NCBI GenBank assembly: GCA_944391505.1
Contig: CALXTV010000007.1
Location: forward strand, 2,839 to 66,838
From: an uncultured Alphaproteobacteria bacterium
Lineage (GTDB): Bacteria; Pseudomonadota; Alphaproteobacteria; RF32; CAG-239
Direction of reading: 5' to 3'
DNA: 64,000 nucleotides
Under the pieces are notes generated by a model. That model saw only the letters and a list, made by a program, of their open reading frames with translations, was not told the DNA's origin and ran no database searches. Positions within the stretch are counted from its first letter, which is position 1. Each line of letters begins with the position of its first letter. Both the position numbers and the translations under genes were made by a program. Of this stretch, positions 12,882-64,000 are shown in pieces.

Positions 12882-12903
12882 AAAAAACAAGCCTAAAACC
12901 CAA

Positions 12904-12931: not shown

Positions 12932-12942
12932 ATTACATGCTC

Positions 12943-13064
12943 TACAGAAAATCCGAGTTTACTCGGGGCTGAATGCAAAAGTGTCGTTAGACGACTGTTC
13001 CGCACCAACGGATGTAGTCAATCCGTAGGGTTGGGAGTTGATTAATTTTTCTCCAGTTTGTTGG
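12943..13064 (+). repeat. Structured GC-rich repeat element, copy A (homologous to 56383-56507)
   Basis: Shared block tacagaaaa-tccgagtttactcggggctgaatgc (hairpin ccgagt/actcgg). A second hairpin gtcgttagacgac sits at the aligned position of copy B gtgttggaacaacac. A conserved ccaacg...gtcaatccgtagggtt block follows, then a degraded terminal hairpin ctccagtttgttgg. Confidence 0.6.
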
Positions 13065-13138
13065 AAAATGTCTATTGGACAAAATATTGACTTAATAAAA
13101 CAATTTTGCTAAAATAAAAAAATAATAAGGATAACTTT

Positions 13139-14680
13139 ATGAATTTGCAGCAGAAATCTAAAAAAATAAAAGAAATCAAGCAAGGTATGCGCAAAGCCGC
13201 ATTAGTCGGTTTGGCTTCGTTGGTTACGACAACTGCTCTTGGCAAAGAGAGCAAAAATGATTTTGGCGGAGATGCTAAAAAAAATCAAACTGAAATCCCG
13301 GCAGTTTCTCCGGCAGAAAAGTCTTCCGAGTGTGCCTACTATGTCAATAATCTGACGCTTGATGCCCAGTCTCCGATTTGTCAGATATATAAGGTCAGCC
13401 GCCATAAGGCGTTCTATTCACATTATCTCAACGGCGGTGCCGGCGGCATTGTCTTTACCCGGTTCCATATCAGTGATGCCGATGCTTTTGGCAATGCCAA
13501 TCAGACCGGTCCCGAAAAATTTTCCAAAGCATTGCAGGATTTTGCGTCACGAGCTAAAAATTTTGGTTATAAAGACGAAATTAAAAATCTGGACGATGTC
13601 GCACGTTGTCTGGCTTCTTATGCCGACAGCAATCGGAAAAAAGACCGTTACATCGGCGAAGCTCTGTCGCAGAACTATGCGGACAGCGGGCTGCAGGCAG
13701 CCCGGACATTGAAAGAAACCGTTGCCGATCTGAACGAAGCTAATCTTAAAATGGCAAAACACGAGCAGACGCATGCTTCCAACGGTCAGTATATGAAAGC
13801 GGTTAAGACCGGCGATATTTTGCTGTCTCCGGGCGGCATTTATTTGGCTCGCATGGCCGATGAGCTGCGGGCGCAGATAAAAGGCGGCAATATTCAGGCA
13901 ACAGCTGCCGGAGTAGAAAACTTTTTTGCTGATTTCGGAGCCGGATATTACGAACAGTATACGTCGGATATTCTCCAAGACGTTTCTTATAATCGGATGT
14001 TTGCCTATGCCTTGAACGAAGAACAGGCAGAACGCCGTATTCCGGCCGAGATTAACAATTCGCTGCTTGGTTTTGAAATGGAAGGCGTTGACAGCCGGGG
14101 AAGAACGCACACAATCAACGGCGTGGAAACTTCCCGGGGATTTGTTTATTTCGGCGGCGAAGATGTTTCGTCGGTTAAAATGAAAAACGGCCGTGTCCTG
14201 CCGCTGAACTGTCTGGCTGATGCCGAAGGCCGTGCGCTGAAAGACGGTAACGGCCAGAAAATACCGGCGCGGGTCATTTATAACGACGGCGATTTTACTG
14301 TTGCCCTGGCGGGAAGCGTTTTGACAACGAAGGACATGGATAGGAATCTGGATGAAGCGCTGCGGCACATATTGCGCGATTTGACGCCTTCAGAGCAAAA
14401 AACGGTTCTGGACGCATTGAATGCCCATTGTCGTGACGATGCTGACAAACTGACTAATGCCCTGTTGCAGGATTCGGACTCGTTAATGAAAATGCGCGCC
14501 GAATCCGATAATGTTGCCGCGGATTTGCAGTATATCCGCGAGAAAAGGGCCTCTTTTCTGCAAAAGGCCGGGGAAGAAAAATATGCAGGCATGAATTTGG
14601 TACGGATTGATTCGTTACAGGATAATTCTTTGCACTTGACCCCGGCAATGTTTCGGCAGCCGTCTGCGGAACGGAAATAA
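13139..14680 (+). CDS. Secreted hypothetical protein (signal peptide)
   Basis: AAGGATA RBS. The N-terminal MRKAALVGLASLVTTTALG is signal-peptide-like. 513 aa with no recognisable catalytic motif. Confidence 0.7.
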   Translation: MNLQQKSKKIKEIKQGMRKAALVGLASLVTTTALGKESKNDFGGDAKKNQTEIPAVSPAEKSSECAYYVNNLTLDAQSPICQIYKVSRHKAFYSHYLNGGAGGIVFTRFHISDADAFGNANQTGPEKFSKALQDFASRAKNFGYKDEIKNLDDVARCLASYADSNRKKDRYIGEALSQNYADSGLQAARTLKETVADLNEANLKMAKHEQTHASNGQYMKAVKTGDILLSPGGIYLARMADELRAQIKGGNIQATAAGVENFFADFGAGYYEQYTSDILQDVSYNRMFAYALNEEQAERRIPAEINNSLLGFEMEGVDSRGRTHTINGVETSRGFVYFGGEDVSSVKMKNGRVLPLNCLADAEGRALKDGNGQKIPARVIYNDGDFTVALAGSVLTTKDMDRNLDEALRHILRDLTPSEQKTVLDALNAHCRDDADKLTNALLQDSDSLMKMRAESDNVAADLQYIREKRASFLQKAGEEKYAGMNLVRIDSLQDNSLHLTPAMFRQPSAERK

Positions 14681-48484: not shown

Positions 48485-51400
48485 ATGACGATTCGGACTG
48501 AAAAAGGACTGTATTTGGGTATAGACGTCGGTTCCACAACCGTTAAGGCAGTGGTTATTGATGCAAAGGAAAATATTTTATTTTCCACATATCAGAGACA
48601 TTTGTCTGAGGTTCGCGGAAAAATCGCGTCAATTATTGCCGAAGTGGCAGAAAAATTTCCCGATGCCGTATTTAACCTGAGCATGACCGGTTCCGGCGCA
48701 TTGTCTCTTTGCGGCAAGCTTAACGTTTCTTTCGTTCAGGAAGTCATTGCCTCAAGCCTGAGTATAAAAAAATTGATTCCCGATGCCGATGTCATCATTG
48801 AGCTTGGCGGCGAAGATGCCAAACTGACGTTTCTGACCAGCGGCACGGATTTGCGAATGAACGAAACCTGCGCCGGCGGTACGGGGGCTTTTATCGACCA
48901 AATGGCCTCGTTTCTCAATCTCGAGGTTGGGGAAATGGATGAGCTGGCGCTGAAATATAAAAATATTTATCCGATTGCTTCCCGCTGTGGCGTATTTGCC
49001 AAAACCGACATTGTTCCGCTGATTAACGAAGGCTGCGCCAAAAGCGATATTGCCATGTCGATTATGCAGGCCGTTGTCAACCAGTTTATCGGCGGTTTGG
49101 CCAGAGGTCGGGAAATAACCGGAAAAGTTGTGTTTCTCGGCGGGCCGCTGGCTTTTCTGAAGTCGCTCCGCCGCTGTTTTGCAGAAACGCTCAAACTTGA
49201 CGAAGCCAACGCCGTTCTGCCAGAAAGAGCCGAACTCTTCGTGGCGCTTGGTGCCGCGCTGCATGCCAAAAGCTGTCCGGGAGAGGCTGTCCGGTTGAAC
49301 GAACTGAAAGCCGCATTGGAAAAACTTGACGAAGAAAAAGATATTCAGAAACTGCCGCCTCTTTTTAAAAATAAGCGGGAAAAAGAAGAATTTGACGCCA
49401 GACATCGCCAAACCAACGTCCAAACTTTTCCTCTGGAAAATTATGAAGGATATGCGTGGTTCGGAATAGACAGCGGTTCGACAACCGTAAAGGCAGTGCT
49501 GATTGATGACAAAAACCATCTGCTCTATTCGTATTACGGACCCAACAACGGTGACCCTTTTCATATTGCCCTCAAAATTCTGGAAGATATTTATTCCCGC
49601 GCCAAACCGGGACTTCAAATCAGAGCTGCCGCGGCAACCGGTTATGGCAGCGCATTGCTGAAAGCCGGACTGAAACTCGATATTGATGAAGTGGAAACGG
49701 TAGCGCATTGCGAGGCGTCGGTGTTTTTTGCCCCCAAAGCAAGTTTTGTCTTGGATATAGGCGGACAGGACATCAAATGTATGAAGCTGAAAAACGGCGT
49801 CATTGAAAAAATCGGCCTTAACGAGGCCTGTTCGTCCGGCTGCGGTTCTTTTATAGAAAATTTTGCCAAATCCTTAAACATGAGCATGCCTGCCTTTGTC
49901 GAAGCGGCAATCAATGCCCGGCATCCCGTCGATCTTGGAACCCGTTGCACGGTTTTTATGAACTCCAAGGTCAAACAGGCGCAGAAAGAAGGCGCTTCCG
50001 TCGGCGACATTGCGGCAGGCCTGTCTTATTCGGTCATTAAAAATGCCTGTTATAAGGTTATAAAAATAAATGATGTTTCGGAACTGGGAGACTGTATTGT
50101 TGCGCAGGGCGGCTCGTTCTTAAACGACGCACTGCTGCGTGCGCTGGAAATACAGGTCGGCAAAACGGTCGTGCGTCCCGGACTTTCCGGTTTGATGGGC
50201 GCATTCGGCGCCGCATTGCTGGCCAAAAAGCGCGGTCCGGAAAACGGTGTCAAAACCGGGCTCATTTCCGAAGAAGAGATAAAAAATCTGCAGATTAAGA
50301 CGACCAACACCCGTTGCAAGGGCTGTGCCAATCATTGTATGTTGACGATTACGGATTTCGGCGGCAAAAAGAAATTTATCTCCGGCAACAAATGCGAAAA
50401 GGGCGCCGGCCTGACAAAAAATACAAAAATCAACCTCTGCGCCTACAAATACAAACGGTTGTTTGACTATTATCAGCCGCTGCCCAAGGAACGCGCCGTC
50501 CGCGGTACGGTGGGCATTCCCCGCGCATTGAATATGTATGAGAACTATCCGCTGTGGTTTACACTGCTGACACGTCTGGGCTTTCGGGTCGAATTGTCCG
50601 CACCGTCGTCAAAGAAAATGTTTTTCAGCGGCTATGCCTCCATTCCGTCGCAAACGGTCTGTTATCCGGCCAAAATGGCGCACGGTCATATTATGGATTT
50701 GTTGAACAAAAACGTAGATTACATCTTTTTTCCGTGTATTCCCCGGGAACAGAAAGAATTTCCGTCTCAGGCCGATTGCTATAATTGTCCCGTGGTTACC
50801 GGATATCCTGAATTGCTGGCCAAAAATATTTCCGAGCTTTCCGAAAGCGGAATACCGTTCTTTGCGCCGTTTCTGCCGTTAGATGAAAAAATTCTGGCCA
50901 AACGGCTGAAGTCGGTACCGTTGTTTGCCGGTTTTTCGTCTCTGCAGCTCCGTATGGCAGTCAAAAGAGCCTTTGTCGAATTGAGACGATTTAAAAAAGA
51001 TATCCGGAACGCAGGCGTCGAAGCCGTTGAAAAATTAAAACAAAGCGGCGAATACGGCATTGTCCTGGCCGGCCACCCGTATCACATTGATCCGGCGATT
51101 AATCACGGCATTCCGGAACTTATCAATTCCTGCGGTTTGTCGGTTCTGACCGAGGATTCGGTGGCTCATTTGCGTCCGAACCCGGAGGCTTTGCGCGTTC
51201 GGGATCAATGGACCTATCACGCGCGCTTGTACCGAGCCGGAACATTCACGGCCGAAAGCCGGAATCTGGCCATTTTGCAGTTGGTTTCCTTTGGTTGCGG
51301 CGTTGATGCGATTACGGCCGATCAGGTTGAAGAAATTGTTACCTCAAAAGAAAGGCTGTATGCGCAGATTAAAATTGATGAAGGCGACAATCTGGGCCCG

Positions 51401-52735
51401 GCCAAAATCAGAATCCGTTCGCTTCTGGCGGCACTGAAAGATATGCAGAGCAGAGAGCAGGGGGCAATGTCACAGGCATTCCGGCAGCCGCCCGTCTTTA
51501 CGGAAGAGATGAAAAAAACGCACACTATTCTCATTCCGCAGCTTTCGCCGATGCATTTTCAGTTTTTGGAGACCGTTTTTGCCAGCGAAGGATATAAGGT
51601 TGCGCAGTTGCCGAAAGTCAGCAAAAGCGCCATAGAGCTCGGTCTGAAACATGTCAACAACGATGCCTGTTTTCCGGCAATCGTCGTTATCGGACAGCTT
51701 TTGCAGGCCATTCGGGACGGCAACTATGATACAAACCGGATTGCGCTTCTTATCTCGCAGACCAGCGGCGGCTGCCGGGCATCAAATTATGCCGGACTTC
51801 TGCGCCGGGCGCTGGCTCAGTGTAACATGGCGCATATCCCGGTAATTACCATGAATGTCAGCGGCAATGTGGATAGCCCGGGCTTTATTCCGGGGCGGAA
51901 AATTCTGCTGCGTTCGATTATGGCCGGTTGTTACGGTGATGCGCTGATGCGGATGTTTAACCGTGTTTCGCCTTACGAAAAAATTCCGGGCAGCGCGCGA
52001 AAACTGCTGGACAAATGGGTCGCTGTTATCAAGGAAAATCTGAAAAGCGGCAATATCGTCAAATTCAACCTGAATATGTTTAAGATGATTCGCGAGTTTG
52101 ACAAACTGCCGCTCCGCAATATAAAAAGAAAACCTCGCGTCGGCCTGGTTGGTGAAATTTTGCTGAAATACCACCCCGATGCCAATAATCGCGCGGCTCG
52201 CATTATTGAGCAGGAAGGCGGCGAAGCGGTTATCCCCGATTTAATGGATTTTATGCTCTACGGATTTTATGATCATATCTTTAACTACAAATATTTACAA
52301 GGGTCTTGGAAAGCCTATGCCGTAAGCATATCCAGCATTGCTCTGCTGGAATTCTGCCGTTGGTCCATGCGTCTGGGTTTGGCGCTTTCCAAACGGTTTG
52401 AACCGCCCGTCTTTTTTAAGAATTTGCGTAAGAAAATTCGCGGCCTGGTCTCTCTGGGACATCAAACCGGCGAGGGTTGGCTGCTGACGGCCGAAATTGT
52501 CGAACTTTTGGAAGCCGGCGTCAATAACATATTATGTATGCAGCCTTTCGGCTGTCTCCCGAACCATATTACAGGAAAAGGCTTTGTCAAGGAAATCAAA
52601 AAGCGTTTTCCGAAAGCAAATATTATTGCCGTAGACTATGATCCGGGCGCCAGCGAAAGCAATCAGGTTAATCGGATTAAGCTGATGATGTCTATTTCCA
52701 AACAAGAACAGGAGGAAAACGGCAAAGCGGCCTGA
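48485..52735 (+). CDS. Giant fusion: two BadF/BadG/BcrA/BcrD-type (CoA-substrate-specific enzyme activase) ATPase modules plus a 2-hydroxyglutaryl-CoA-dehydratase (HgdB)-like domain
   Basis: Two copies of the GIDVGSTTVKAV / GIDSGSTTVKAV acetate/sugar-kinase-fold phosphate loops. Cys clusters (CKGCANHC). The C-terminal part is dehydratase-D-like. Confidence 0.85.
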   Translation: MTIRTEKGLYLGIDVGSTTVKAVVIDAKENILFSTYQRHLSEVRGKIASIIAEVAEKFPDAVFNLSMTGSGALSLCGKLNVSFVQEVIASSLSIKKLIPDADVIIELGGEDAKLTFLTSGTDLRMNETCAGGTGAFIDQMASFLNLEVGEMDELALKYKNIYPIASRCGVFAKTDIVPLINEGCAKSDIAMSIMQAVVNQFIGGLARGREITGKVVFLGGPLAFLKSLRRCFAETLKLDEANAVLPERAELFVALGAALHAKSCPGEAVRLNELKAALEKLDEEKDIQKLPPLFKNKREKEEFDARHRQTNVQTFPLENYEGYAWFGIDSGSTTVKAVLIDDKNHLLYSYYGPNNGDPFHIALKILEDIYSRAKPGLQIRAAAATGYGSALLKAGLKLDIDEVETVAHCEASVFFAPKASFVLDIGGQDIKCMKLKNGVIEKIGLNEACSSGCGSFIENFAKSLNMSMPAFVEAAINARHPVDLGTRCTVFMNSKVKQAQKEGASVGDIAAGLSYSVIKNACYKVIKINDVSELGDCIVAQGGSFLNDALLRALEIQVGKTVVRPGLSGLMGAFGAALLAKKRGPENGVKTGLISEEEIKNLQIKTTNTRCKGCANHCMLTITDFGGKKKFISGNKCEKGAGLTKNTKINLCAYKYKRLFDYYQPLPKERAVRGTVGIPRALNMYENYPLWFTLLTRLGFRVELSAPSSKKMFFSGYASIPSQTVCYPAKMAHGHIMDLLNKNVDYIFFPCIPREQKEFPSQADCYNCPVVTGYPELLAKNISELSESGIPFFAPFLPLDEKILAKRLKSVPLFAGFSSLQLRMAVKRAFVELRRFKKDIRNAGVEAVEKLKQSGEYGIVLAGHPYHIDPAINHGIPELINSCGLSVLTEDSVAHLRPNPEALRVRDQWTYHARLYRAGTFTAESRNLAILQLVSFGCGVDAITADQVEEIVTSKERLYAQIKIDEGDNLGPAKIRIRSLLAALKDMQSREQGAMSQAFRQPPVFTEEMKKTHTILIPQLSPMHFQFLETVFASEGYKVAQLPKVSKSAIELGLKHVNNDACFPAIVVIGQLLQAIRDGNYDTNRIALLISQTSGGCRASNYAGLLRRALAQCNMAHIPVITMNVSGNVDSPGFIPGRKILLRSIMAGCYGDALMRMFNRVSPYEKIPGSARKLLDKWVAVIKENLKSGNIVKFNLNMFKMIREFDKLPLRNIKRKPRVGLVGEILLKYHPDANNRAARIIEQEGGEAVIPDLMDFMLYGFYDHIFNYKYLQGSWKAYAVSISSIALLEFCRWSMRLGLALSKRFEPPVFFKNLRKKIRGLVSLGHQTGEGWLLTAEIVELLEAGVNNILCMQPFGCLPNHITGKGFVKEIKKRFPKANIIAVDYDPGASESNQVNRIKLMMSISKQEQEENGKAA

Positions 52736-53192
52736 AACGTCCGGAAAACAAAAAGATATTGACTTTTCTAAATCCATATTGTAAACAAAAGGCCGATAAA
52801 AGATTAGTAAGATATTATTCTATAAATTGCCTGAAGCATTTTACGAACGCAATTTGCCAAAGTCAGATTAAAAGGTTCAGCAGTCCGTCGAGATGAAAGA
52901 TTCTTGAAAAAGCTATGATTGACGAGGATGTTTTGCGTTTCCGCAAGTAATGACGAATGAAAACGGATAAAATGAAATTTCGGCAGTTTCCGTAAAAAAG
53001 AAAACAAATTGTTTCCATATAAATATTTGCTTATAAGTTTTCTTTCCCTTGAAATGTCCGTTTCAGGGGTTTTCTTTTATAAAATTTTTTTTGACATAGT
53101 GCCCATAACGACAATAGGTTAATTTGTTTGATATACTTAATAGGAAAAATATCCTTTCATTAGAGTTTGAAAATGAAAAGAATTACCTGTTG

Positions 53193-54428
53193 TTAATATG
53201 TCTTTTGAGACAGTAATGCTTGATTTATTGGTACATTAGATCTTGTGTTGCTGTTATTTTGTTTAACATGGGTTAGTAACGGATTAGTACCATGCCTTAA
53301 TGAAACAAGAAAATAATATTGTTGACTTTTACTCATACCTTGAAATTGTGTATGAGAAGTAGTTAAACCCTGATTTGGCAAAGGAGGCGGCATAGGATTT
53401 ACATATTCTTGAGCAACTTGTTGCCCCGTTTTGCTCAATTGTTTTGCACGTCCATAAATGCTTTCCTGTATTTTATTTAAATCAATTTTTTCAGCGGGAG
53501 TATAATTTTCATTATTTTGTAATTCTGAAATAGTTCTGTACATCCCATCAGCACCATTTTCATCATATTGTTTAATCATATTATTTCTGCGAGCTGTCAT
53601 ATTTTCACTTAGACAAGTATCAATAGGTTTATGCAGATTAGCAAAGTCTCGCCATTTTTTATCTATAATTTCTCCGTTTTCATCAAGTTCTAAAGGGATG
53701 ACTTTTTGTTGTTGCTTTTCTTGGTCGTATGCTGATATCCAAACTTTTTTAAGTTTATTCTGATGTGGAAATATTGCTGTTTCATTTTTATCATATGCTT
53801 TTTCTATATCAAACTCATCTGTAAAGTAATCATGATTAATATCGCCAAAACCTTGTCATTTTCCTTTACTTTCATACTCAAAAACGAAACCGTATATGAC
53901 CTTCCCGTCATGACAAGACAAAAACCTTGAATTATGTCCAGATCCCCGGGGTGTAACATAGTCACAGGCACCTTGCATAATTTGCTTATTTTGACCTGAT
54001 ATAGAAACATTTTCTTGTCTAGCCCCAAAAGCAGCACCATATGTATGTCCATAAACTTCATATTTAACCAATACAGCATAAGGATCACCACTAAAGCCTC
54101 CATGAAAAACAGAAGCTAACTCACCTTTGTTTTGTAATGACTCTATATTTTCTTTGTTCATTACAACAGGATCGACGCCATTTTCCATAACATTTTTTAT
54201 CATTTCATCAGCATAATCATCTAAGGATAAGTGATCTTTAAGAATTTCTTGATAGTTACTGCCATTAGCTCTGGCTATTATATTGATGTCTAAATTTCTA
54301 CCTATATCAGTAGCAGCCGGTGCAATTTCTTTACGAGTCATAGGATGGGATAAATATACTTTACCTCCTTGTTTAGATATAGCCTCAATTATTTTTATAT
54401 TTGCTTTTAATGCTTCATCCGGAGCCAT
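53193..54428 (-). pseudogene. Toxin-like 411-codon reading frame interrupted by one in-frame TGA (at 53856-53858)
   Basis: Track ORFs 53856..54428 and 53193..53600 are in the same frame. The sequence between them is open except for a single TGA (...ESKGK*QGFGD...). AT-rich island. Confidence 0.5.
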
Positions 54429-54532
54429 AAAGGGTGAATGAACACCTGTTTGGGTTACAATAAAAACATTTGGATTAGTGGCTCTTGGATCATCCTCAGT
54501 TAACCTCTCCTTTAAAGGCTTAAAACAAAGAC

Positions 54533-54931
54533 TTACCTTTTATTGCAAATTGTTGGATATTCCCAATTTCCTGATAATTTAGAACAATCTTGGGATATAA
54601 AGTCAAATTTACAATCATTATTATCAATATTCCAAGCTTTTTGATTATTTAGGCAAATTTCTTTAAATGTTTGATTGTTTGGGCAATTTGATAAATTTTT
54701 GCATTGTTTCAAAAGTTTTGTCTGTTCCGGTGTAAGTTTGATACAGCCAAATTCTTTTTTCCAAATTAAGCAATCATCTCGGCAAATATTATTTTGATAA
54801 TCCCATACTTGTCCGTTATCCACACAAGTATCAATACTCAACCAATAAGGATTGCGAATAAAGGAAATGCTTAAACCCAGTAAACATACGCCAAAAAAGC
54901 TTATCATTAATATTTTTATAATTTTTGTCAT
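54533..54931 (-). CDS. Cys-rich (12 Cys) membrane-anchored small protein
   Basis: N-terminal TM/signal anchor. Its start is 3 nt after the stop of the upstream SAA-like gene. Confidence 0.6.
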   Translation of the reverse strand: MTKIIKILMISFFGVCLLGLSISFIRNPYWLSIDTCVDNGQVWDYQNNICRDDCLIWKKEFGCIKLTPEQTKLLKQCKNLSNCPNNQTFKEICLNNQKAWNIDNNDCKFDFISQDCSKLSGNWEYPTICNKR

Positions 54932-54934
54932 TGC

Positions 54935-55393
54935 CTAATATTTTTTATTTGTTGATTTTTTTCTTTTAAATTCGCAACCATCTTTAGCATTTGTATATAG
55001 CCCACTTTTTGCTTGATGGCGCCCAAGCGAATTAATATATTTATCGTGTTCATAATCAGCATAAGCATCTATAGCTGATGTTCCTTTTATAATCCTATTT
55101 TTGAAATAGTCAATTCGTTCTTTAGCATCACCAATAGCTTCTGCTGTTTTCTCGCCCCATTTTCCTCTTTGGGTTGCTTCATAATTTGCTTTGCAATGAA
55201 AATAGTCATCGTTTCCAATTACATTATCTTCTTTCATATCATTATAATTTTTATACATGTCAGAAGCAGCACCAAAAATTTGAGCAAAAGGTGTTTCTAG
55301 TAAATTAGTCATTTTATTATTTCTGTTTGTTTGCTTTTTCTTCATTTGTTTTTCAGGATCTTCCTGAATGATATAACGTATAAGGTTACTCAT
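54935..55393 (-). CDS. Serum amyloid A (SAA)-like protein
   Basis: AAAGGA RBS. FGAASDMYKNYNDMKEDNVIGNDDYFHCKANYEATQRGKWGEKTAEAIGDAKERIDYF aligns with vertebrate SAA [59 protein letters not shown]. Confidence 0.75.
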   Translation of the reverse strand: MSNLIRYIIQEDPEKQMKKKQTNRNNKMTNLLETPFAQIFGAASDMYKNYNDMKEDNVIGNDDYFHCKANYEATQRGKWGEKTAEAIGDAKERIDYFKNRIIKGTSAIDAYADYEHDKYINSLGRHQAKSGLYTNAKDGCEFKRKKSTNKKY

Positions 55394-55780
55394 AATTTTT
55401 TCCTTTCATGATAATGTTTAGAGATTTAAAATAAAAAAAATCCGAAGAACTTAATCTTCAGATTTTGGATACACTTGTATCAAGTGATAATTAGTCTATA
55501 ACAAATATATATACAATTTTCAAGATATAAGTAAAATATGTCAACAACTTTTAATCTTTTTCTGTTTTACAATCCTCAAAATGATAGATATAATATTTTT
55601 GAAAATATGATTGATGATAAAAAACGTATAAACAATTAGTTATAATGAAAATATAGACTTTTTTCGGGTTCCTCGGAAAGGGTGGGGTGGCAGGATGTGT
55701 CAATACCAACCCATAAAACCTTGTTTCGTGTAAAATCAATAATTTATCTAAATATCGTCTGGGGTGTAAACCTCAAAGTT

Positions 55781-55878
55781 ATTAGCAGTTTTCATTAGCA
55801 CTGCTAATAAAATATATTAGCACAATTTCGCTGTCAATTAGGAATATCAAGGATTAACGGCGAATTTATTCTGCTAAT
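55781..55878. promoter_or_regulatory. Array of ATTAGCA(G/C) half-sites including a perfect 15-bp palindrome ATTAGCACTGCTAAT (55794-55808)
   Basis: Copies at 55781-55788, 55794-55808, 55816-55823 and 55871-55878, within the 670-bp AT-rich gap between divergent island genes. Confidence 0.35.
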
Positions 55879-56063
55879 AACTTTTATTATTAGGGTGATA
55901 TGAGAGATTTTTCCTAAAAGTTGTTGATATGTTCACTTGTAACTTGAAAATTGTATTTAATTTTGCTATAAGAAAAAAGCCACTTGCTATTAGTGTATCT
56001 AAATATACAAAATATTAAGAAATCACATAGTAAGTTAATCTATTATTTTGCCGGAGAGGAAAT

Positions 56064-56321
56064 ATGAAAGAACAAATTGTAAAATTTCTGCGTTTTTTGT
56101 GTGGGTATATTATACTAAGCTCTTTGGCCTTACTTATATTTAATGGGATTTCAGGCCCTAAAAATTATGTTTTTGGCTGGCCTTCCTTTATTTATATGGT
56201 AACATATCTTATTTATCCCCTAATAAGAAAACTCGGGAACATCAATAAGAAATATAGTGTTATTTATTTTTCAGTGCTATATTTTATTTTATGTTTTTTA
56301 TATTTTATATTTATCTTCTAA
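56064..56321 (+). CDS. Small membrane protein, hypothetical
   Basis: GGAGAGGAAATATG RBS. 85 aa with 3 hydrophobic helices. Terminator at 56341-56371. Confidence 0.45.
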   Translation: MKEQIVKFLRFLCGYIILSSLALLIFNGISGPKNYVFGWPSFIYMVTYLIYPLIRKLGNINKKYSVIYFSVLYFILCFLYFIFIF

Positions 56322-56340
56322 GCATATATTTTACTAATTT

Positions 56341-56371
56341 CAGCTCTACACACAAGTGTAGAGTTTTTTTT
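56341..56371 (+). terminator. Rho-independent terminator
   Basis: ctctacacacaagtgtagag plus a T8 run. Confidence 0.8.
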
Positions 56372-56382
56372 ATTAGTTGCCT

Positions 56383-56507
56383 TACAGAAAACCCCGAGTT
56401 TACTCGGGGCTGAATGCCAAGGTGTTGGAACAACACCGCTCCATGCCAACGAGCGTGGTCAAACCGTAAGGTTTGTAGCTGTTATAGAACCCCCAGTTTA
56501 CTGGGGG
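56383..56507 (+). repeat. Structured GC-rich repeat element, copy B (homologous to 12943-13064)
   Basis: tacagaaaaccccgagtttactcggggctgaatgcc, the hairpin gtgttggaacaacac, a conserved ccaacg...gtcaaaccgtaaggtt block, and a terminal second copy of the first hairpin (cccccagtttactggggg, 56490-56507). It is GC-rich inside an AT-rich island. Confidence 0.6.
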
Positions 56508-56529
56508 ATATCTATTGAAAGGAAACCTC

Positions 56530-57264
56530 ATGGTAAATTTATCAAATATTTTATTAACAGCAGGAAAAAAAATTACTAAAGCAATTGTCAAAAAAGAAGC
56601 CAGAGAGCATAGTGATACCATTGATGAATTCTCTAACTCAACGGCATTAAATCCGTTTGACGTTAAACCATTGAATGAAGGAGAAGATGAACGTATTGAA
56701 CAGATATTAAAATCTAAGGAGACATATGAACCTTATTATAAAAAACAACTTGAAAAACTTAACCAAAAACAAAAATTAATCCAAGATATAAATCAAAACA
56801 ATAACGCAGAAGAAGATATTTTATATAAACACCCTTCACAAATTACAGAAGCTGAAATAAAAAATAGTATGATTTATTCAGGAGACAAAACGTCTGACCG
56901 AGAATTAAAAGAACAATTGCAAAAGAAACAAAAAGATTGGTTTGATTTTTATTATGGTACAGATGCAATTAAAACGGATGCAGCCGGAAAATATATATCA
57001 CCTTCAATAAAGCATTCATTACCGGATGCTCCCGTTGAGCTTACAACCAAAGAAAAACTTCCGTTGATGAACGGATTTGATAAAATAGCAGAATATACAT
57101 CTAAGAATGATGTGAAAACATTGCAAAATAGGCTTAACAATCTTTATCAGAATGATACTTCTTTGCCACAATTAAAAGAAGATGGAATTCTTGGTAAAAA
57201 AACTACATCTCGTATAAAAAAAGCCCTTGTTGAATTTGGTGTAAATAAAATTACTCAAAACTAA
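56530..57264 (+). CDS. Protein with C-terminal peptidoglycan-binding (PG_binding_1-like) domain
   Basis: AAAGGA RBS. LQNRLNNLYQNDTSLPQLKEDGILGKKTTSRIKKAL matches the PGBD pattern (LQ..L..LGY...DGifG..T..A). Charged, K/E-rich N-terminal region. Confidence 0.65.
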   Translation: MVNLSNILLTAGKKITKAIVKKEAREHSDTIDEFSNSTALNPFDVKPLNEGEDERIEQILKSKETYEPYYKKQLEKLNQKQKLIQDINQNNNAEEDILYKHPSQITEAEIKNSMIYSGDKTSDRELKEQLQKKQKDWFDFYYGTDAIKTDAAGKYISPSIKHSLPDAPVELTTKEKLPLMNGFDKIAEYTSKNDVKTLQNRLNNLYQNDTSLPQLKEDGILGKKTTSRIKKALVEFGVNKITQN

Positions 57265-57748
57265 ATTTTTTACCATCAAATAATTTTTATAGAATAGGCT
57301 GTGTTTTTTTCAGCCTATTCTATACTATAAATTTCTTACCCTTCGTTTTGAGTGTAGGAATTGATTTTTGGCGATAAACTTATCGTAAAACAACCATATT
57401 TGCATTGGCTGACAAGGAAAACACTTAAAATAAAATATTTTTCGCACAGCTCCATAATTTTAATTGCAAATTAAGACCTTGGTTTATAATATAAACTCAG
57501 TTATGGGGGAATACTCCATAATCAGAACCAGAGATGGTTCGGGGCTTTCATCGGCTCTTATCGTGTACGGTGTTAGGATATAACATCGTCATATTGTTAG
57601 CTTGTAATTGGAGCTGACAGTAAATATATCCCCGATTAAAATTGGTAAAACTCTTTTGGTCGGGGAGCTTTTGGCGTATGTTCAGAAGTTTTTTGACTTT
57701 AAAGGCTAAGAGAATCATTTTACACGATATGATTGATGGACTCTCCGA

Positions 57749-57778
57749 CCACCTTAAATAGGTGGTTTTCTTTTAATT
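57749..57778 (+). terminator. Intrinsic terminator/attenuator ~30 nt upstream of the autotransporter start codon
   Basis: ccaccttaaataggtgg plus ttttcttttaatt. Confidence 0.55.
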
Positions 57779-57806
57779 GCAATTAAAGAAAAGGAAGTTT
57801 AATCAT

Positions 57807-60800
57807 ATGAAAAAATCTTTATTAATGACAACAGCATTGGTTGCACTGGTGAGTGCATCTAATGCCCGCGCTGAAGATTGGACAGTCAGTGCGCCGGAAA
57901 GTATTGAAAACCAAATCCTAAATAAAGACAATGTAACCATTCAAGCCGGAGGCGAAGTTGCAATTTCCGGAGACACGGAAAGCGGCATAATCGCCAAAAG
58001 TTTTACGATGGAAGGCGGAAAGCTGACCGCAACATCGGTTAACGGCAGCGCCGACACCGGAATTTTCGTTAAATCGGACAGTTCAGACATAAACTTGAAT
58101 GGCGGCACCATCGAGTTAACAAATTCACGCATCTACAAAGGCAATGATACAGAGACAAGCGGAGATATTAATATTTCCGGTGGAGATATTACTTTGAATA
58201 AAGATGCCTATATTGAAATGCGGAAAGAAAACAGCGGTAATGTCAATATAACCGGTGGCAACTTACTCTTAAATGAAAATTCAGCCTTGCTCATCAATAG
58301 CAACAATGACCAAGAAGTTGAGGGCAACGCCTCCAAGGTGATAATCAATGGGGAAGGGGCGCAAATTACGGCAACCGGAAACAACCGCATCACGGGAAAT
58401 ATTGATTTTACGAACGGAACCCTAACAGTCAGCGACAATGCAAGTTTGACTTCCGGTGATATAACTATGTCCGGTGAAGATGCTCAGATAGATTTGTCCG
58501 GCCAGTTGAATACAAATATTTCCGGCAATGGAAATATCACATTCCAAAATTCGTCCTCAAATATTAAAGGGAATGTCTCAGGCTCTCATTTAACCTTTGA
58601 AGCAGACCATTCTTTAAGCCAAGCTATTTCGGGCGGTATTTCTAATTTAGCCTCTTTGAGTGTTAATAAAGGAACATTGACGTATGATAAACCTTCGGAA
58701 GGTCTTTTAGGTGATGTGAAGGTTGCTCAAGGAGCGGGATTAAATGTTAATAAATTTATGCAAACCAATGATTTAACGCTTAACGGAAAAGTCAGCATCA
58801 ATGATGATGTCGCCGCACAAGGAAACATCAAAATAGCCGATGCCTCGATTGATTTGAACGGCAAGTCATTAAATGCCATAAAAGAAGGTATTACAATGAC
58901 GAGCGGAACCATCAATATGAACAATGGCTCAGGCGACCAAGATTTAACCCTTTGGGCGGCTAAAGATATTAATATCTTGGGCGGTACAATTAATATGAAT
59001 GGTCGCGAAGCATACATTGACACATTTTATGACTTGCTTAACCCTGATGACCATACACCGCTCCCAAAACCGGACACTCCTGGAAATATTAATATTTCTA
59101 ATGCGACCATTAACGTTAACAGCAATTCGGCGGAAATATCTTCCGAAGGAAAGATTAATGTTTCCGATAATGCGGTCATCAATATCGCATCTGGTGCAAA
59201 ATTATCTTCTTATGAGAGCTTTAGCATTAAAAATGCAGATTTAGTATTAGGTGATAAGGCCACTATCAATCTTACCGGTACCGGCGCAATTAATATTGCC
59301 GGTAATTTGGCGGCAAATGTTGAAGGTGATGGTAATCTGAACATTAAGTCTTCTAATGCGGTAATTGATGGTGATATCAAAGGCTCGCAATTAACCTTTG
59401 AGGCAGACCATTCTTTGAGTAAAGCTCTGTTGGGTGAGAATATTGAATTAGCCTCTTTGAACGTTAACAAAGGTACGTTGACTTTTGATAAACAACCAAC
59501 TTCAATCACCAATTTGAATGTTGCCGGAGGTTTGGACATTGGTACCAATACCGTAAAAGCTACCAATGTTTCCTTCAAAGACAACTCCACGCTTAAATTC
59601 ACGGTTGCCGGTAAAGAAGACGGAAGTTATGGTAAAATTCAAGCTAGTACGATAGATATTAGCACAACCGGTACCAAACTTGATTTAACCTTAAACAGCA
59701 GTGTTTTGGGTAAAGATGAAGCAAAAGATTTTACTATTCTTGATGGTAGTGTCAGCGGAGATTTTGCGGAGTTAAGCAAAAACAGCCGTTATGAATTTGA
59801 AAAATTAGGAAACGGTCAATATAAAATTACCGGAAAAGCCTCAGCGGCTGATATTGCGACAGAAGCCGGCGGTAATGCCAACAATGTCGGCACTGCAACG
59901 GCTTGGGATGGTGTTTCTTTAGATAACCCAAGCGGTTCAACTTCCGGACAAGTTGCCAATGCCTTGGCTGAATTGGCTGGTAAACCGGATGCCGCCTCAC
60001 AAAAGGCTTATGTAGATGCTTTGACCGCGGTTGCTCCTGAGGTTGCGCCAATGGTTCAACATACACAAACCGAAACCGCAAACCAAGTCTTTGGCGCTGT
60101 CGGTACACGTTTAACCGGTGGTTCTGTTTCTACCGGTGGTGAAGGTATGTCTTCCGGTGATAATATCTTTGAGCGTGCCGCAATGTGGGTTCAAGGCTTG
60201 TTTAATAAATCTAAACTTGATGACACTTCAAAATCTTATGGCTTTGATGCAGATTCAAACGGTATCGCCATGGGTGCTGAAAAATATGTAACGGAAGACA
60301 CCAAAGTCGGTTTAGGTTATGCTTATACCAACACCGATATTGACGGCTTCAAAAGAGATACTGATGTCGATACACATACCGCCTTTGTTTATGGCGAATA
60401 TAAGCCGAGTAATTGGTATGTTAACGGTATCGCCTCATACGGCTGGTCAGATTATGACGAAAGCAAGAATGTTGCCGGAGTTAATGTTAAGTCTGACTAT
60501 GATGCCGAAACCTTTGGTTTGCAAGCTATGGCCGGTTATGACATGCAAATGAAACACTTCGGTTTAACTCCTGAAGTTGGTTTGCGCTATGTTCACATTA
60601 GCCAAGACAGCTATAAAGATTCTGCCGACCAAAGAGTATCTGCAAATGATAGCGATATCTTAACCGGTGTTATCGGTGCTAAAGTCAGCAAAACTTGGAC
60701 GCTTGAAAACGGTATGAACATTAAACCGGAAGCACGCATTGCCGCAACTTATGACCTGATGAACGATGACACAAACTCTGTCGTAACTTTGGCCAATGGT

Positions 60801-60971
60801 TCGGCTTATGCGGTCGATGGCGAAGCTCTTGACCGTTTCGGAATGGAATTCGGTGCCGGTGTAACTGCGGAAGTTAACGACAATGTTGAGCTTTCTCTCG
60901 GTTATGAGGGCAAATTCCGCGATAATTACGAAGACCATACAGGCTTGATTAACGCTAAATATAAGTTTTAG
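57807..60971 (+). CDS. Autotransporter with large repetitive passenger domain
   Basis: AAGGAAG RBS, signal peptide MKKSLLMTTALVALVSASNARA, and an internal duplication (LTFEADHSLSQAISGGISNLASLSVNKGTLTYDK / LTFEADHSLSKALLGENIELASLNVNKGTLTFDK). The C-terminal beta-barrel ends ...INAKYKF. Confidence 0.9.
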   Translation: MKKSLLMTTALVALVSASNARAEDWTVSAPESIENQILNKDNVTIQAGGEVAISGDTESGIIAKSFTMEGGKLTATSVNGSADTGIFVKSDSSDINLNGGTIELTNSRIYKGNDTETSGDINISGGDITLNKDAYIEMRKENSGNVNITGGNLLLNENSALLINSNNDQEVEGNASKVIINGEGAQITATGNNRITGNIDFTNGTLTVSDNASLTSGDITMSGEDAQIDLSGQLNTNISGNGNITFQNSSSNIKGNVSGSHLTFEADHSLSQAISGGISNLASLSVNKGTLTYDKPSEGLLGDVKVAQGAGLNVNKFMQTNDLTLNGKVSINDDVAAQGNIKIADASIDLNGKSLNAIKEGITMTSGTINMNNGSGDQDLTLWAAKDINILGGTINMNGREAYIDTFYDLLNPDDHTPLPKPDTPGNINISNATINVNSNSAEISSEGKINVSDNAVINIASGAKLSSYESFSIKNADLVLGDKATINLTGTGAINIAGNLAANVEGDGNLNIKSSNAVIDGDIKGSQLTFEADHSLSKALLGENIELASLNVNKGTLTFDKQPTSITNLNVAGGLDIGTNTVKATNVSFKDNSTLKFTVAGKEDGSYGKIQASTIDISTTGTKLDLTLNSSVLGKDEAKDFTILDGSVSGDFAELSKNSRYEFEKLGNGQYKITGKASAADIATEAGGNANNVGTATAWDGVSLDNPSGSTSGQVANALAELAGKPDAASQKAYVDALTAVAPEVAPMVQHTQTETANQVFGAVGTRLTGGSVSTGGEGMSSGDNIFERAAMWVQGLFNKSKLDDTSKSYGFDADSNGIAMGAEKYVTEDTKVGLGYAYTNTDIDGFKRDTDVDTHTAFVYGEYKPSNWYVNGIASYGWSDYDESKNVAGVNVKSDYDAETFGLQAMAGYDMQMKHFGLTPEVGLRYVHISQDSYKDSADQRVSANDSDILTGVIGAKVSKTWTLENGMNIKPEARIAATYDLMNDDTNSVVTLANGSAYAVDGEALDRFGMEFGAGVTAEVNDNVELSLGYEGKFRDNYEDHTGLINAKYKF

Positions 60972-61078
60972 GAGGACTTGTCAAAATTTATTTTGACGTA
61001 AAAATGTCATCTTCAGAGCGAACAGAGCGTAAGTGAATGTAAGACCCGGAGATCTGGCGTTAAATCACTAAAACGAAA

Positions 61079-61112
61079 CAGCCTCGGATAAAAATATTCG
61101 AGGCTGCTTTTA
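61079..61112 (+). terminator. Rho-independent terminator of the autotransporter gene
   Basis: cagcctcg...cgaggctg plus a T-run. Confidence 0.8.
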
Positions 61113-61357
61113 TATAAATTGTTAAATAAGTTCAAAATATGTAAAGAAAAAATCCAGTTATTCAAAAGCAATAAACCAATATCAATAAGTTTCAGATTTC
61201 AGAATATCTTAACAGTTCCTATTGCTCAGAATATCATTGGTTAGTTGAGTTGATTGAATATGATAATAATAGTTTTAGGCGTAGAGGAGAAATTTATGGT
61301 ATCAAATCGGCTGTGTTTTTATCACAATCTATTTTTGTTTTGTTATTTATTCTATCT

Positions 61358-61849
61358 CTAATGAGTCAAATCGGCTTTGTCATCACATTCAATTCTTGCT
61401 TGATGGAGATATTCTTTTACTGTATTTTGAATCCAATATGTCGCCTTCCCAATTGCTATGGTGTTATACATATTTCCTCCGCGCACAGATGCAAAATCGC
61501 TATATTGTATCATATCATGAGCACAGGCATAATAGGCTGTAACCAGTGTATCAAAATTCTTTTTGACCTCAGCATTGTATTTTTTATAATTTCTGTCAAA
61601 AAGTTTATGGGCAACAGCAATAGAACAATCACCAAAATCATAAGCCGCATTATTCATATCTGCAGTTGAGGGAGCATCGGCCATTTGAATTTTGCAATTC
61701 GCCAATTCTTCTTCCAAACTACGAAGAAATGCATCTTCTTCACCTGAACATTTTTCTTGTTTGTCAGTGTAGGTTGATACTTTTTCTTCTGCTGCGGAAG
61801 CTTGTATAGATAATGCCAATGCCATTATTAATAATAAAATAAATCTCAT
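61358..61849 (-). CDS. Secreted Cys-containing protein (possibly DUF1311/LprI-like)
   Basis: Signal peptide MRFILLLIMALALSIQASA and 6 Cys. It is the last gene of the minus-strand island operon. Confidence 0.55.
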   Translation of the reverse strand: MRFILLLIMALALSIQASAAEEKVSTYTDKQEKCSGEEDAFLRSLEEELANCKIQMADAPSTADMNNAAYDFGDCSIAVAHKLFDRNYKKYNAEVKKNFDTLVTAYYACAHDMIQYSDFASVRGGNMYNTIAIGKATYWIQNTVKEYLHQARIECDDKADLTH

Positions 61850-61853
61850 CCCG

Positions 61854-62366
61854 CTATTCCTTATGAGTTTGAAGAGGCTTTACTTCCATCTTCTTAAAGG
61901 CAACAATCATTAAAACACCATAAATAATTAATGGTAAGAAAAAGAATATTGCTCCAAGAATGGCATTCCCCAGACTGCCAAGTGTTAAGATAATATTTTT
62001 TTGTTTAAACAAAAAATACAAATAAACAAATATATATAATAACCATTCAGGAATTATTACTTGCCAAGATAAGGCTTTGTATAAATAATTTTTTCCATAA
62101 ATTTTCAGCCCTGTGTAGAGGGGAAAGGCTTGAAAATAAAAACAAATGATTGTAAATGTTTCATAACGACATGGGGCTTGTTCATCTTTTCTAAACCAAT
62201 GAAAATAGTTATTCCAACCAAATTCCAGATAATTTTGAATTTGAGCCCCAAAAGCAGGAGTAATACAGATTTCGCCACTTTGATGGTCATTCGTCATCAT
62301 TGTTCCCCATAATAGAGACAAAACAATAATCAGTAGCTCTAGTATAATGTATTTTACTATTTTCAT
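61854..62366 (-). CDS. Membrane protein, paralog 2 of tandem pair (immunity-protein-like)
   Basis: Shares GWNNYF(H/Q)WF, a PC(R) motif and TM topology with 62379..62885. About 4-5 TM helices. Confidence 0.6.
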   Translation of the reverse strand: MKIVKYIILELLIIVLSLLWGTMMTNDHQSGEICITPAFGAQIQNYLEFGWNNYFHWFRKDEQAPCRYETFTIICFYFQAFPLYTGLKIYGKNYLYKALSWQVIIPEWLLYIFVYLYFLFKQKNIILTLGSLGNAILGAIFFFLPLIIYGVLMIVAFKKMEVKPLQTHKE

Positions 62367-62378
62367 AGGTTTCTCTTT

Positions 62379-62885
62379 TTACTTGCTTTTTATTTTCATT
62401 ATATGCATGTTGCACCCAGATATTATAAATACAGAACACAGAATAAAAGGAACAAATAGTAGCAATATTCCGATTAAAGCATTTATGAAACTATAACTTG
62501 TTAACACTAGACCTGGCTGCAAAAATAACCATATCATAAATAGAGCAATGTAAAATATATATTCTGAAATAACAAATTTATATTTAAGCGTTATTGAAAG
62601 CTTAAACATTCCATACACCTTTAACAAAGCATATGCAGGAAAACAACTTAAAAAATATAAGCACCATGCTGCAAAAGTTATACGGCATGGCATTTGTTCT
62701 ATATTTGAAAACCATTGAAAATAGTTATTCCAGCCTAATGCCAGATAGTTACCAATATTTATTCCATAATTTGCTGTTAGGCATGTTTCTCCAGGTTTGA
62801 GCATTGAGATAAAAAATAAATCTCCCCAAAACCAAGCGGCGATAATAAATATTAGTTCCAGAATGACATAAAATAAAATTTTCAT
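62379..62885 (-). CDS. Membrane protein, paralog 1 of tandem pair (immunity-protein-like)
   Basis: Paralogous to 61854..62366. Its start overlaps the stop of the upstream SLT-like gene by 1 nt. Confidence 0.6.
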   Translation of the reverse strand: MKILFYVILELIFIIAAWFWGDLFFISMLKPGETCLTANYGINIGNYLALGWNNYFQWFSNIEQMPCRITFAAWCLYFLSCFPAYALLKVYGMFKLSITLKYKFVISEYIFYIALFMIWLFLQPGLVLTSYSFINALIGILLLFVPFILCSVFIISGCNMHIMKIKSK

Positions 62886-63817
62886 TATTTTCCTTTTTTT
62901 GATTTAAATTTTGGCATTTCCAATGGGTTATTCCAAGTTTTATTTTTATAATATTCTTTGGCCCGAGCACCATAATCATTTACTTCTTTTAATCCTGTAC
63001 CATTCCATAAAGTAGCAATTTTGGCAATATCTTTATCCGGAACAGCATCATATATGGATTTAAGAACCCTTACGCCGAGTTCTATGTTTTGCTCAGGATC
63101 ATTAACATCATATTGTTTTCCTTGAAAGTTACCCCACGTCTTTCCTTGAATATTCATAGGAAGGGTACTTTCAGAAATTTTTATAATATCAGCCAATTTG
63201 TTGTATCCATATTTATGATAATCAGAATTTTCTGAATATATTATAGCTTTTGTTATATTAGGGTCAAGCCCATATCGTTGAGAATATTTTTCTATTTGTT
63301 TGCTATATTTATCTACATAATCTCTTCCCCAGTTGTGTAAATGTTCAGGTAATAAGTCTGGTTTGGCATTAGGATTATCGGCAATATTAATATATATTTT
63401 TTTGCCTGATTTAAGAGCATCTATTCTGTCTTTAGCACTCATTCCATTTCCATTTATTGATATTTGTGGATTTTTTATTTCTTGTTTTATGTCAATTTTG
63501 GGAGAGCTTTTAGCCCATGGAGTTTGATTTTCTGTTTTGTCAGATATTTTTAAATCTTGAGATTTTATATTTGAAGAAGATTTTTCATCAGATTTAATAT
63601 TGTTAAAGATATTAGAAATTCCACTCATAAAAGAACCATCATCTTTACTTTGTGAAGATTTGTTTGCTGTTAATGAATTAAAGCTGTTTTCCAACAAATT
63701 TTTAGAGCTGAATTTATAGCCTTTGTATTTGTCTTCTTGAGATTGTTTTTGAATAGGATAATTAAAAAAATATATTTTTTGAAAAATAGACAAAATAATG
63801 CTTGCATAGCATGTCAA
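62885..63817 (-). CDS. Lytic transglycosylase (SLT-domain)-like protein with low-complexity S/K/N-rich N-terminal region
   Basis: IIYSENSDYH (ES catalytic-type motif), NDPEQNIELGVRVL (compare MltE NPERNISMGAAYL), and LWNGTG (compare SYANGAG). The start is uncertain. Confidence 0.55.
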   Translation of the reverse strand: MTCYASIILSIFQKIYFFNYPIQKQSQEDKYKGYKFSSKNLLENSFNSLTANKSSQSKDDGSFMSGISNIFNNIKSDEKSSSNIKSQDLKISDKTENQTPWAKSSPKIDIKQEIKNPQISINGNGMSAKDRIDALKSGKKIYINIADNPNAKPDLLPEHLHNWGRDYVDKYSKQIEKYSQRYGLDPNITKAIIYSENSDYHKYGYNKLADIIKISESTLPMNIQGKTWGNFQGKQYDVNDPEQNIELGVRVLKSIYDAVPDKDIAKIATLWNGTGLKEVNDYGARAKEYYKNKTWNNPLEMPKFKSKKGK

Positions 63818-63830
63818 AATGTGGTATATA
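63802..63830 (+). promoter_or_regulatory. sigma70-like promoter TTGCAT-N17-TATATA driving the partial plus-strand gene
   Basis: Read directly. It overlaps the 5' end of the divergent SLT-like gene. Confidence 0.4.
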
Positions 63831-63881
63831 CTATTTCAGAAAAAAATATTTTTATGTTAAATAAAAAAATTTTATCATTAT

Positions 63882-64000
63882 GGAAACAAAAACATTTTTT
63901 GAAAAAGTAAAAGAATTAGCTAGAGAAAATAGTTTCAAATGTAATGCCGCCGGTCGTCGGTTTGTGGCTGATAAAATTCAGGTAACAGAACCACGCTTGT
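63882..64000 (+). CDS. Partial CDS running off the window end
   Basis: ATG at 63882, and METKTFFEKVKELARENSFKCNAAGRRFVADKIQVTEPRL is open to the window end. Confidence 0.4.

Follow-up and report, generated by a model that had tools for sequence, protein, structure and literature searches.

A gene-less 142-nt repeat of uncultured gut Alphaproteobacteria, very probably derived from an IS200-type insertion sequence

The repeat at 56374–56515 of the window (the whole stretch of 64,000 nucleotides that was analysed), here called copy B, is very probably a gene-less palindrome-associated transposable element (PATE) derived from an IS200-type insertion sequence, of which it keeps the two subterminal hairpin ends together with 64 nt of structured filler. 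We hold with high confidence that this 142-nt sequence is a non-autonomous element of the IS200/IS605 family, mobile through the putative action of the transposase of an IS200-type insertion sequence. It belongs to a family of genomic parasites that is common, with many copies, in uncultured gut Alphaproteobacteria, and it is not a regulatory RNA of the neighboring gene. We place copy B as a PATE in the 'peel and paste' family IS200/IS605 because its hairpins are subterminal and in the same orientation on one strand, its tips lack inverted repeats, there is no variable target duplication, and a cognate insertion sequence with a Y1 (HUH) transposase has the same ends. At the level of sequence, every feature by which a non-autonomous IS200/IS605 element is defined appears to be present. 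The observations behind this identification are the anatomy of the element, its copy number, its sharp boundaries, its target motif, a precise presence/absence polymorphism, cognate tnpA elements with the same ends, guide/target covariation, and a strand bias.

Anatomy and boundaries of copy B

Copy B and the features described with it are on the + strand. The upstream ORF (56064–56321) is followed by its intrinsic terminator (56342–56371), which a terminator scan resolved into a hairpin at 56342–56365 and a T8 tract at 56364–56371; it is host DNA and the type of site in which the family preferentially lands. The left-flank logo gives the target motif, or transposon-adjacent motif, as TTTAT (56369–56373), with insertion 3′ of the motif, which is not duplicated. 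The element that follows is complete and near the family consensus. Its first 18 nt (56374–56391) consist, as read from the logo, of the left tip TAGTTGCCTTACAG and a putative DNA guide, AAAA (56388–56391), directly 5′ of the left subterminal hairpin. This hairpin, CCCCGAG-TTTA-CTCGGGG (56392–56409), is the presumed TnpA binding site and is paired in 97% of cells over 33 distinct copies. It is followed by CTGAATGC (56410–56417), a motif found to be near-invariant in the alignment and in the left ends of insertion sequences, where autonomous copies read (T/G)TGAATGC. The fold then delimits an internal module of three hairpins (56421–56475), namely P2 at 56421–56437, P3 at 56438–56458, and P4 at 56460–56475. 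A second putative DNA guide, TAGAA (56485–56489), stands 5′ of the right subterminal hairpin, CCCCCAG-TTTA-CTGGGGG (56490–56507), which is identical in autonomous copies of the insertion sequence. The right tip, ATATCTAT (56508–56515), includes the transposon-encoded motif TCTAT (56511–56515), and conservation stops abruptly after it in the right-flank logo. The downstream host gene (56530–57264; 244 aa, weak match to Pfam PG_binding_1) has its ribosome-binding site outside the element and is not part of it.

Both hairpins of copy B have the loop TTTA and lie on the + strand. On either strand, the fold of copy B is far stronger than that of shuffled sequence (z about −5), and the pattern CCCCNAGTTTACTNGGGG, with at most two mismatches, has five matches on both strands of the window against 0.02 expected from shuffles. 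A first-pass annotation of this DNA had located the hairpins correctly, CCCCGAGTTTACTCGGGG at 56392–56409 and CCCCCAGTTTACTGGGGG at 56490–56507, and had drawn the element as 56383–56507. The hairpins are real, but the element is wider and takes in 18 nt before the first and 8 nt after the second. A GC content of about 60% had been claimed, where we measure 52% for 56383–56507 and 49% for the whole element; the AT-rich island around it, put at about 30% GC, does measure 30%. The contrast in composition is therefore real yet smaller than claimed, 52% for that span against 30% for the island.

Related contigs for this locus were taken from public assemblies that hold the downstream 244-aa protein. 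Two of them (L115 and L116) are filled like the window, and four (L117–L119 and L121) start inside copy B, which is typical of repeat-induced assembly breaks. One contig, L120, is empty. It comes from the same species, its identity to the window being 99.5% on the left side and 98.0% on the right side, and it is missing window positions 56375–56512; the distance from the upstream ORF to the downstream gene is 66 nt in L120 and 208 nt in the window. As exactly 142 nt are lacking, the element is 56374–56515, with a register ambiguity of 3–4 nt. The empty junction reads ...GTGTAGAGTTTTTTTTAT followed directly by TGAAAGGAAACCTCATG, or in a shorter form ...TTTTTTTTAT followed by TGAAAGG. TAT closes the target as well as the right end, so that this junction can be drawn in four equivalent registers, and we adopted the one with insertion 3′ of TTTAT. 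Formally, the shared TAT makes a fixed 2–3 bp duplication compatible with a single empty site. A second pair of loci, L022 filled and L020 empty, agrees with the first. The idea that copy B is a small mobile repeat, already put forward in the first-pass annotation, is thus borne out by a contig without exactly the 142 nt. The search for empty sites in related strains that had been proposed along with that idea came out positive, and the result named there as speaking against it, a conserved 5′ UTR of the downstream gene with no mobility signature, was not found.

A profile search of the window with nhmmer returned only two copies, B with 191 bits and A with 81.5 bits. Copy A (12934–13075, + strand) is an older, decayed member of the family that follows a terminator at 12901–12926. 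It is 74% identical to copy B over 93 nt (12948–13040), and its right hairpin has degraded to TTCTCCAGTTTGTTGGAAAA. No empty site was found for copy A, as ten of ten related contigs (L122–L131) are filled at the same site. The decay of its right hairpin and its presence in all ten contigs indicate an old, fixed copy. The left tip of copy A (the first ~25 nt, 12934–12960) varies among these near-identical strains, where at about 3800–3830 of the contigs it reads TAGTTGCCTTACAGAAAACCCC, TTACATGCCTTACAGAAAACCCC, or TTACATGCTCTACAGAAAATCC; the rest of the decayed copy is identical among them. Left tips that match these variants are found in different subfamilies, suggesting that copies have undergone conversion or recombination with one another. 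The gene that follows copy A (13139–14680) is itself highly strain-variable and has no Pfam match; in the window and in L123 and L128–L131 it is called, at the same position, as 513, 515, 647, 436+71, or only 82 aa.

The window has AT-rich islands at 53000–58000 and 61000–64000, with 27–33% GC against 45–50% elsewhere, and a third at 3000–5500 with 27–29% GC. The first two hold small unannotated minus-strand ORFs, the protein with the weak PG_binding_1 match (56530–57264), a 1064-aa autotransporter (57777–60971) with internal repeats at 58563–58692 and 59364–59493, and an SLT-domain protein (62885–63817). A 152-aa protein encoded in an AT-rich island on the − strand at 54935–55393 matches Pfam serum amyloid A (PF00277, E 9.5e-20), a domain that is unusual in bacteria. 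Also in AT-rich DNA, a 72-nt inverted repeat (55464–55535 and 55932–56003) precedes copy B by a few hundred bases, with arms 74% complementary and 396 nt apart; it could be a low-complexity chance match or the ends of another small element. In the third island, an N6/N4 DNA methylase gene (3469–4383, E 9.4e-58) overlaps an ORF of 353 aa without a Pfam match, and the two may form a restriction-modification pair. The window further encodes a 1416-aa protein (48485–52735) in which BcrAD/BadFG ATPase domains are fused to DUF2229 (CoA enzyme activase), as is typical of anaerobes.

Dispersal, target sites and the parent insertion sequence

A scan of a genome collection with the 21-nt core pattern AGTTTACTNGGGGCTGAATGC, taken from an exact 24-mer common to copies A and B, located the core on at least 114 contigs. 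Among the matches listed, all contigs belong to metagenome-assembled genomes (MAGs) of uncultured gut Alphaproteobacteria, including records named 'Azospirillum sp. 51_20' and 'Acetobacter sp. 46_36'; several MAGs give many core-bearing contigs, and many matches sit at contig ends. The 115 core matches that were lined up, among those listed, have one invariant architecture. From 5′ to 3′, a host terminator hairpin and a T-run ending in ...TTTAT are followed by TAGTTGCCTTACAGAAAA, the left hairpin, CTGAATGC, three small hairpins, a short variable stretch, TAGAA, the right hairpin, and ATATCTAT, beyond which the sequence is unrelated. Position logos of 102 distinct left flanks and of the right flanks, among the matches listed, exhibit an abrupt loss of conservation after ATATCTAT and identify the T-run of the left flank as the tail of a terminator.

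Target choice is narrow. Among the matches listed, 76 of 102 distinct occupied sites have TTTAT and 84 of 102 end in TAT. A GC-containing hairpin ends at most 12 nt upstream of 84 of the 102 occupied sites, whereas in the same loci such a hairpin precedes 9% of the TTTTAT sites and 18% of the TTTTTTAT sites that are unoccupied. The family is therefore tied to terminators more closely than the motif itself would bring about. Terminator-like sequences are in excess upstream of IS200/IS605 elements (PMC13548323), and the copy B family fits this pattern. The terminator bias, as well as the strand bias described below, could partly reflect selection on tolerated insertions and gene orientation, not targeting. 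The CTAT of the right end mimics the target motif, and for this reason the ATATCTAT of one element often has another inserted immediately behind it. Full and partial copies form tandem or nested arrays in L057 (3285–3835), L047 (3504–3718), L006 (164–387), L095 (1600–1779), L012 (4270–4440), and L083 (about 5700–5830).

Some copies are rearranged. L072 has, on its reverse strand and ending at 1501, a 'one-hairpin' remnant of 44 nt, TAGTTGCCTTACAGAAAACCCCCAGTTTACTGGGGGATATCTAT, that still stands after a terminator and TTTAT, and it looks as if the left and right hairpins had recombined with loss of everything between them. Smaller internal changes, an 8-nt duplication inside P2 (GGTGTTGAGGTGTTGG) and a deletion of P4, are seen in L091 (about 2221, reverse strand) and L109 (about 5240).

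Cleavage motifs of IS200/IS605 elements are selected through pairing with 'guide' bases 5′ of each hairpin (PMC10055086). In the copy B family, a single base ahead of each hairpin changes in step with the base that lies 4 nt before the point of cleavage, A occurring with T, C with G, and G with C. The left guide AAAA goes with T at −4 (TTTAT) at 74 distinct sites of gene-less elements, among the matches listed, and at the sites of the insertion sequence that encodes the transposase P0003 (see below). Four independent sites (L025, the L132 group, L151, and L164) have the left guide ACTA, and in these G stands at −4. At the right end, the G of the guide matches the C of TCTAT, with which it would pair, and TAGAA and TCTAT occur together at 68 distinct sites among the matches listed. 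This covariation agrees with what an IS608-type DNA-guide model would predict. The full pairing scheme and its register are putative extrapolations from the single covarying position, the other positions being invariant.

The hairpins themselves are strongly conserved as structures. Standard pairs fill 94% of pair cells over 33 distinct copies, against 37–46% when the partners are slid by 1–3 columns. Across the family, four of the seven pairs of the right hairpin have changed on both sides, as in CCCCCAG/CTGGGGG to CCTCGGG/CCCGAGG, suggesting that the hairpins are maintained through compensatory changes. In 70 of 98 loci the hairpins lie on the G-rich strand (p 2.6e-5), a figure confounded with gene and terminator orientation. 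The cumulative GC skew of the window rises steadily, so that its + strand is the G-rich strand throughout. Insertion into the lagging-strand template is expected for IS200/IS605 elements (PMC7290912), and the bias to the G-rich strand is in that direction.

No tnpA was found within the 64-kb window; elsewhere, elements with the same ends do encode a transposase. In L025, a left and a right end lie ~520 nt apart and enclose an ORF of 142 aa, which matches Pfam Y1_Tnp ('Transposase IS200 like') over the full model (E 1.9e-31). The left end in L028 is identical to that of the gene-less element through CTGAATGC and continues into the same tnpA leader and N-terminus (94% over 51 aa), where the contig ends. 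A protein search with TnpA returned 1142 relatives at E up to 1e-30, all annotated as Y1_Tnp. One identical TnpA protein, P0003 (92% identical to that of L025), is present behind at least four different left flanks and so behaves as an insertion sequence, not as a fixed host gene. Each copy of the P0003 insertion sequence follows a terminator and TTTAT and ends in ...GAACCCCCAGTTTACTGGGGGATATCTAT, and its right end is 100% identical to that of copy B over 31 nt. The parent insertion sequence is about 560 bp long and consists of the left hairpin, TGAATGC, a long 5′ UTR stem, tnpA, a small hairpin, TATAGAA, the right hairpin, and ATATCTAT. The 5′ UTR stem (CACGACGACGATGC...GTATCGTCGTCGTG) encloses the ribosome-binding site and start codon.

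A scan of metagenomes for the junction of the left end with tnpA returned mostly one fixed locus, which there carries a tnpA-deleted derivative. This PATE of ~136 nt arose by clean deletion of tnpA and is present in L134 (reverse strand, about 9040–9210) and at the same locus in L132–L153; what remains is the left end with the first part of the 5′ UTR stem, fused to the last codons, which the small hairpin and the right end follow. Many human gut metagenomes carry it, fixed at a single GC-rich locus. The deletion shows directly how gene-less derivatives arise in this family.

By homology with IS608 and IS200, the life cycle of copy B would run as follows. TnpA, a Y1 HUH transposase, would be supplied by a full-length relative elsewhere in the genome and, by analogy, would bind both same-strand DNA hairpins while that strand is single-stranded during replication. 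Cleavage would fall 3′ of TTTAT at the left end and 3′ of TCTAT at the right end, at sites probably selected through pairing with the short 'guide' bases directly 5′ of each hairpin. A single-stranded circle would leave, and the donor would be resealed precisely. The circle would then re-insert 3′ of another TTTAT, which in these genomes would mostly be the T-tract after an intrinsic terminator. We infer catalysis by TnpA, a single-stranded intermediate, and present-day activity by analogy with these systems.

Other readings of the element and its internal module

The mechanism first proposed for copy B was that of a miniature inverted-repeat element, with direct and inverted terminal repeats as its hallmark. 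A classical MITE of this type would have terminal inverted repeats, would be moved by cut-and-paste by a DDE transposase, and would leave a short target-site duplication, here TAT or AT. Each end does contain a palindrome, and the TAT found on both sides of copy B could be read as a 3-bp duplication. However, the tips TAGTTGCC... and ...ATATCTAT are not reverse complements and form no terminal inverted repeats; the hairpins are set in from the ends by 18 and 8 nt and directly oriented, and the supposed hallmark merely follows from the likeness of two palindromes. The pentamers on the two sides, TTTAT and TCTAT, are fixed and different, with no variable duplicated target, and the only protein found between matching ends is the Y1 HUH transposase. 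We consider a classical MITE highly improbable. We give equally little credence to a REP/REPIN-type repeat kept by a domesticated, single-copy RAYT (REP-associated tyrosine transposase). RAYTs, too, give matches to Pfam Y1_Tnp, and REPs are GC-rich intergenic palindromes near terminators, but here the transposase gene itself lies within the same directly oriented left and right ends and an identical protein recurs behind at least four left flanks. The unit moreover has distinct left and right ends with target and end motifs and is not an inverted REP doublet.

The position of copy B, with 14 nt between it and the start codon of the + strand gene downstream, and its strong fold (z about −5) would also suit a structured cis-regulatory leader of that gene, be it a riboswitch, a thermometer, or an attenuator. 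Yet a near-identical strain has the same gene without the element, and the more than 100 copies among the matches listed are found beside unrelated genes, attached to the upstream terminator and not to the downstream gene. At copy A, a promoter-like site (TTGACT, 17 nt, TAAAAT) is located downstream of the element, and copy B has no Rfam match. A cis-regulatory leader is therefore the reading to which we give the least weight of all, next to none. The gene-less PATE derived from an IS200-type insertion sequence remains the preferred reading.

Several other candidates were tried and rejected. The three inner hairpins are no tRNA or tmRNA cloverleaf: ARAGORN returned nothing, and the closing helix is lost in variants (GTAGC to GTATC or GTAAC). 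Neisseria-type uptake sequences and Correia-like elements were dismissed, as no DUS or USS is present. A minus-strand Rfam match to STnc490 over the left hairpin (E 0.023) was taken as resemblance to the left hairpin of IS200 and not as membership. A minus-strand small RNA that would end in the left hairpin as its terminator (CCCCGAGTAAACTCGGGG followed by TTTTCTG) was dropped as the primary reading given the copy number, the boundaries, and the tnpA partners; it is possible as a side effect of the element.

The internal module is the part of copy B that the parent does not account for in the copies recovered. The 64 nt between CTGAATGC and the right guide fold as P2, P3 (in two alternative registers), and P4. 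The module is absent from 12 loci that bear the insertion sequence, in which the flanks of tnpA were read (78–100% TnpA identity), and a blastn-short search for it across 37 loci related to the insertion sequence returned nothing. It may be filler inherited from an unsampled relative, a folding aid for the single-stranded intermediate, or RNA cargo. Transposition of the TnpA type is not known to require such a module. That it is functional RNA cargo spread by the element, and not filler, either as a guide-RNA scaffold or as a portable RNA-stability or terminator module, strikes us as doubtful.

In this extended reading, copy B would be a PATE that also carries a working RNA. The transcribed module and right end would serve as an omega/reRNA-like guide scaffold for TnpB in trans, or as a small RNA or terminator module of benefit to host or element. 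Omega RNAs are frequent in published PATEs (PMC10055086). From one subfamily to another the module is conserved, and it shows some compensatory changes (G-C to A-T and T-A to C-G in P2, T-A to C-G in P3), and its absence from the loci examined with the insertion sequence means that it is no simple leftover of those copies. The covariation is modest, however, and mostly common by descent within subfamilies. Wobble pairs favor the hairpin strand in a weak excess, 45 G-T against 26 A-C mismatches, but the bias is gone once decayed copies are removed (19 against 10, p 0.14). No TnpB-like gene is present among the 10 ORFs of the window scanned against Pfam, nor, by eye, in the ~150 nt upstream of 24 right ends without a nearby left end. 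Rfam has no family for copies A and B, either at the gathering threshold on the whole window or at E up to 10 on both copies, and copy B has no internal promoter-like site. On balance, we think a working RNA unlikely. If it were true, the module could be a compact scaffold, with the 3′ flank as guide, used in trans by an unlinked TnpB-like nuclease that re-cuts emptied TTTAT sites; in the alternative, it could be an RNA-stability or terminator module tolerated or exploited by the host at the 3′ ends of genes.

Known relatives and significance of the family

The closest known systems are the PATEs of Geobacillus stearothermophilus and Halanaerobium (PMC10055086, PMC7290912). Like copy B, they are gene-less with two subterminal hairpin ends, lack inverted repeats at the tips and target duplications, insert 3′ of a fixed pentanucleotide, share their ends with cognate tnpA elements, and reach many copies per genome. 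Copy B differs from them in its host, an uncultured gut alphaproteobacterium, in its target, a TTTAT that is mostly the tail of an intrinsic terminator, and in its 64-nt three-hairpin filler, which is not in the recovered copies of the parent; no linked TnpB or omega RNA was seen. Our literature search, aimed at the general biology of IS200/IS605, found no paper on this element in the gut alphaproteobacterial lineage. PATEs are a kind of element already known, to which copy B adds a further member in this uncultured lineage.

IS200 of Salmonella and IS1541 of Yersinia form the IS200 group, which encodes tnpA only in about 700 bp. IS1541 reportedly sits after terminator-like palindromes. IS200 consists of a left-end hairpin, a long 5′ UTR stem around the ribosome-binding site and start codon, and tnpA (PMC4513863); the parent insertion sequence described here (about 560 bp, tnpA of 142 aa) has the same layout, and it is by layout that we liken the two. 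STnc490 is an RNA antisense to the left end of IS200 (PMC4513863), and the left hairpin of copy B resembles that of IS200 enough to give the weak Rfam match. Unlike IS200, copy B has neither tnpA nor the 5′ UTR stem. IS608 of Helicobacter pylori, the mechanistic model of the family, shares with copy B a hairpin at either end on one and the same strand, cleavage sites that lie at a distance beyond the hairpins (the tips of copy B being 18 and 8 nt), and evidence for bases 5′ of each hairpin pairing with the cleavage motif (PMC10055086). IS608 differs in that it carries tnpB and targets TTAC.

For the annotation of these genomes, the identification removes a false lead, in that copy B is no riboswitch or leader of the adjacent gene, and the element accounts for many contig breaks in MAGs of this gut lineage. 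The conserved internal module is the only part with the prospect of something new. The association with terminator T-tracts is unusually strict, and the data display guide-to-target pairing of the IS608 type in an uncultured lineage. With more than 100 insertions, empty sites within species, several variants of the parent insertion sequence, and a direct deletion derivative, the family offers a natural data set for transposon biology.
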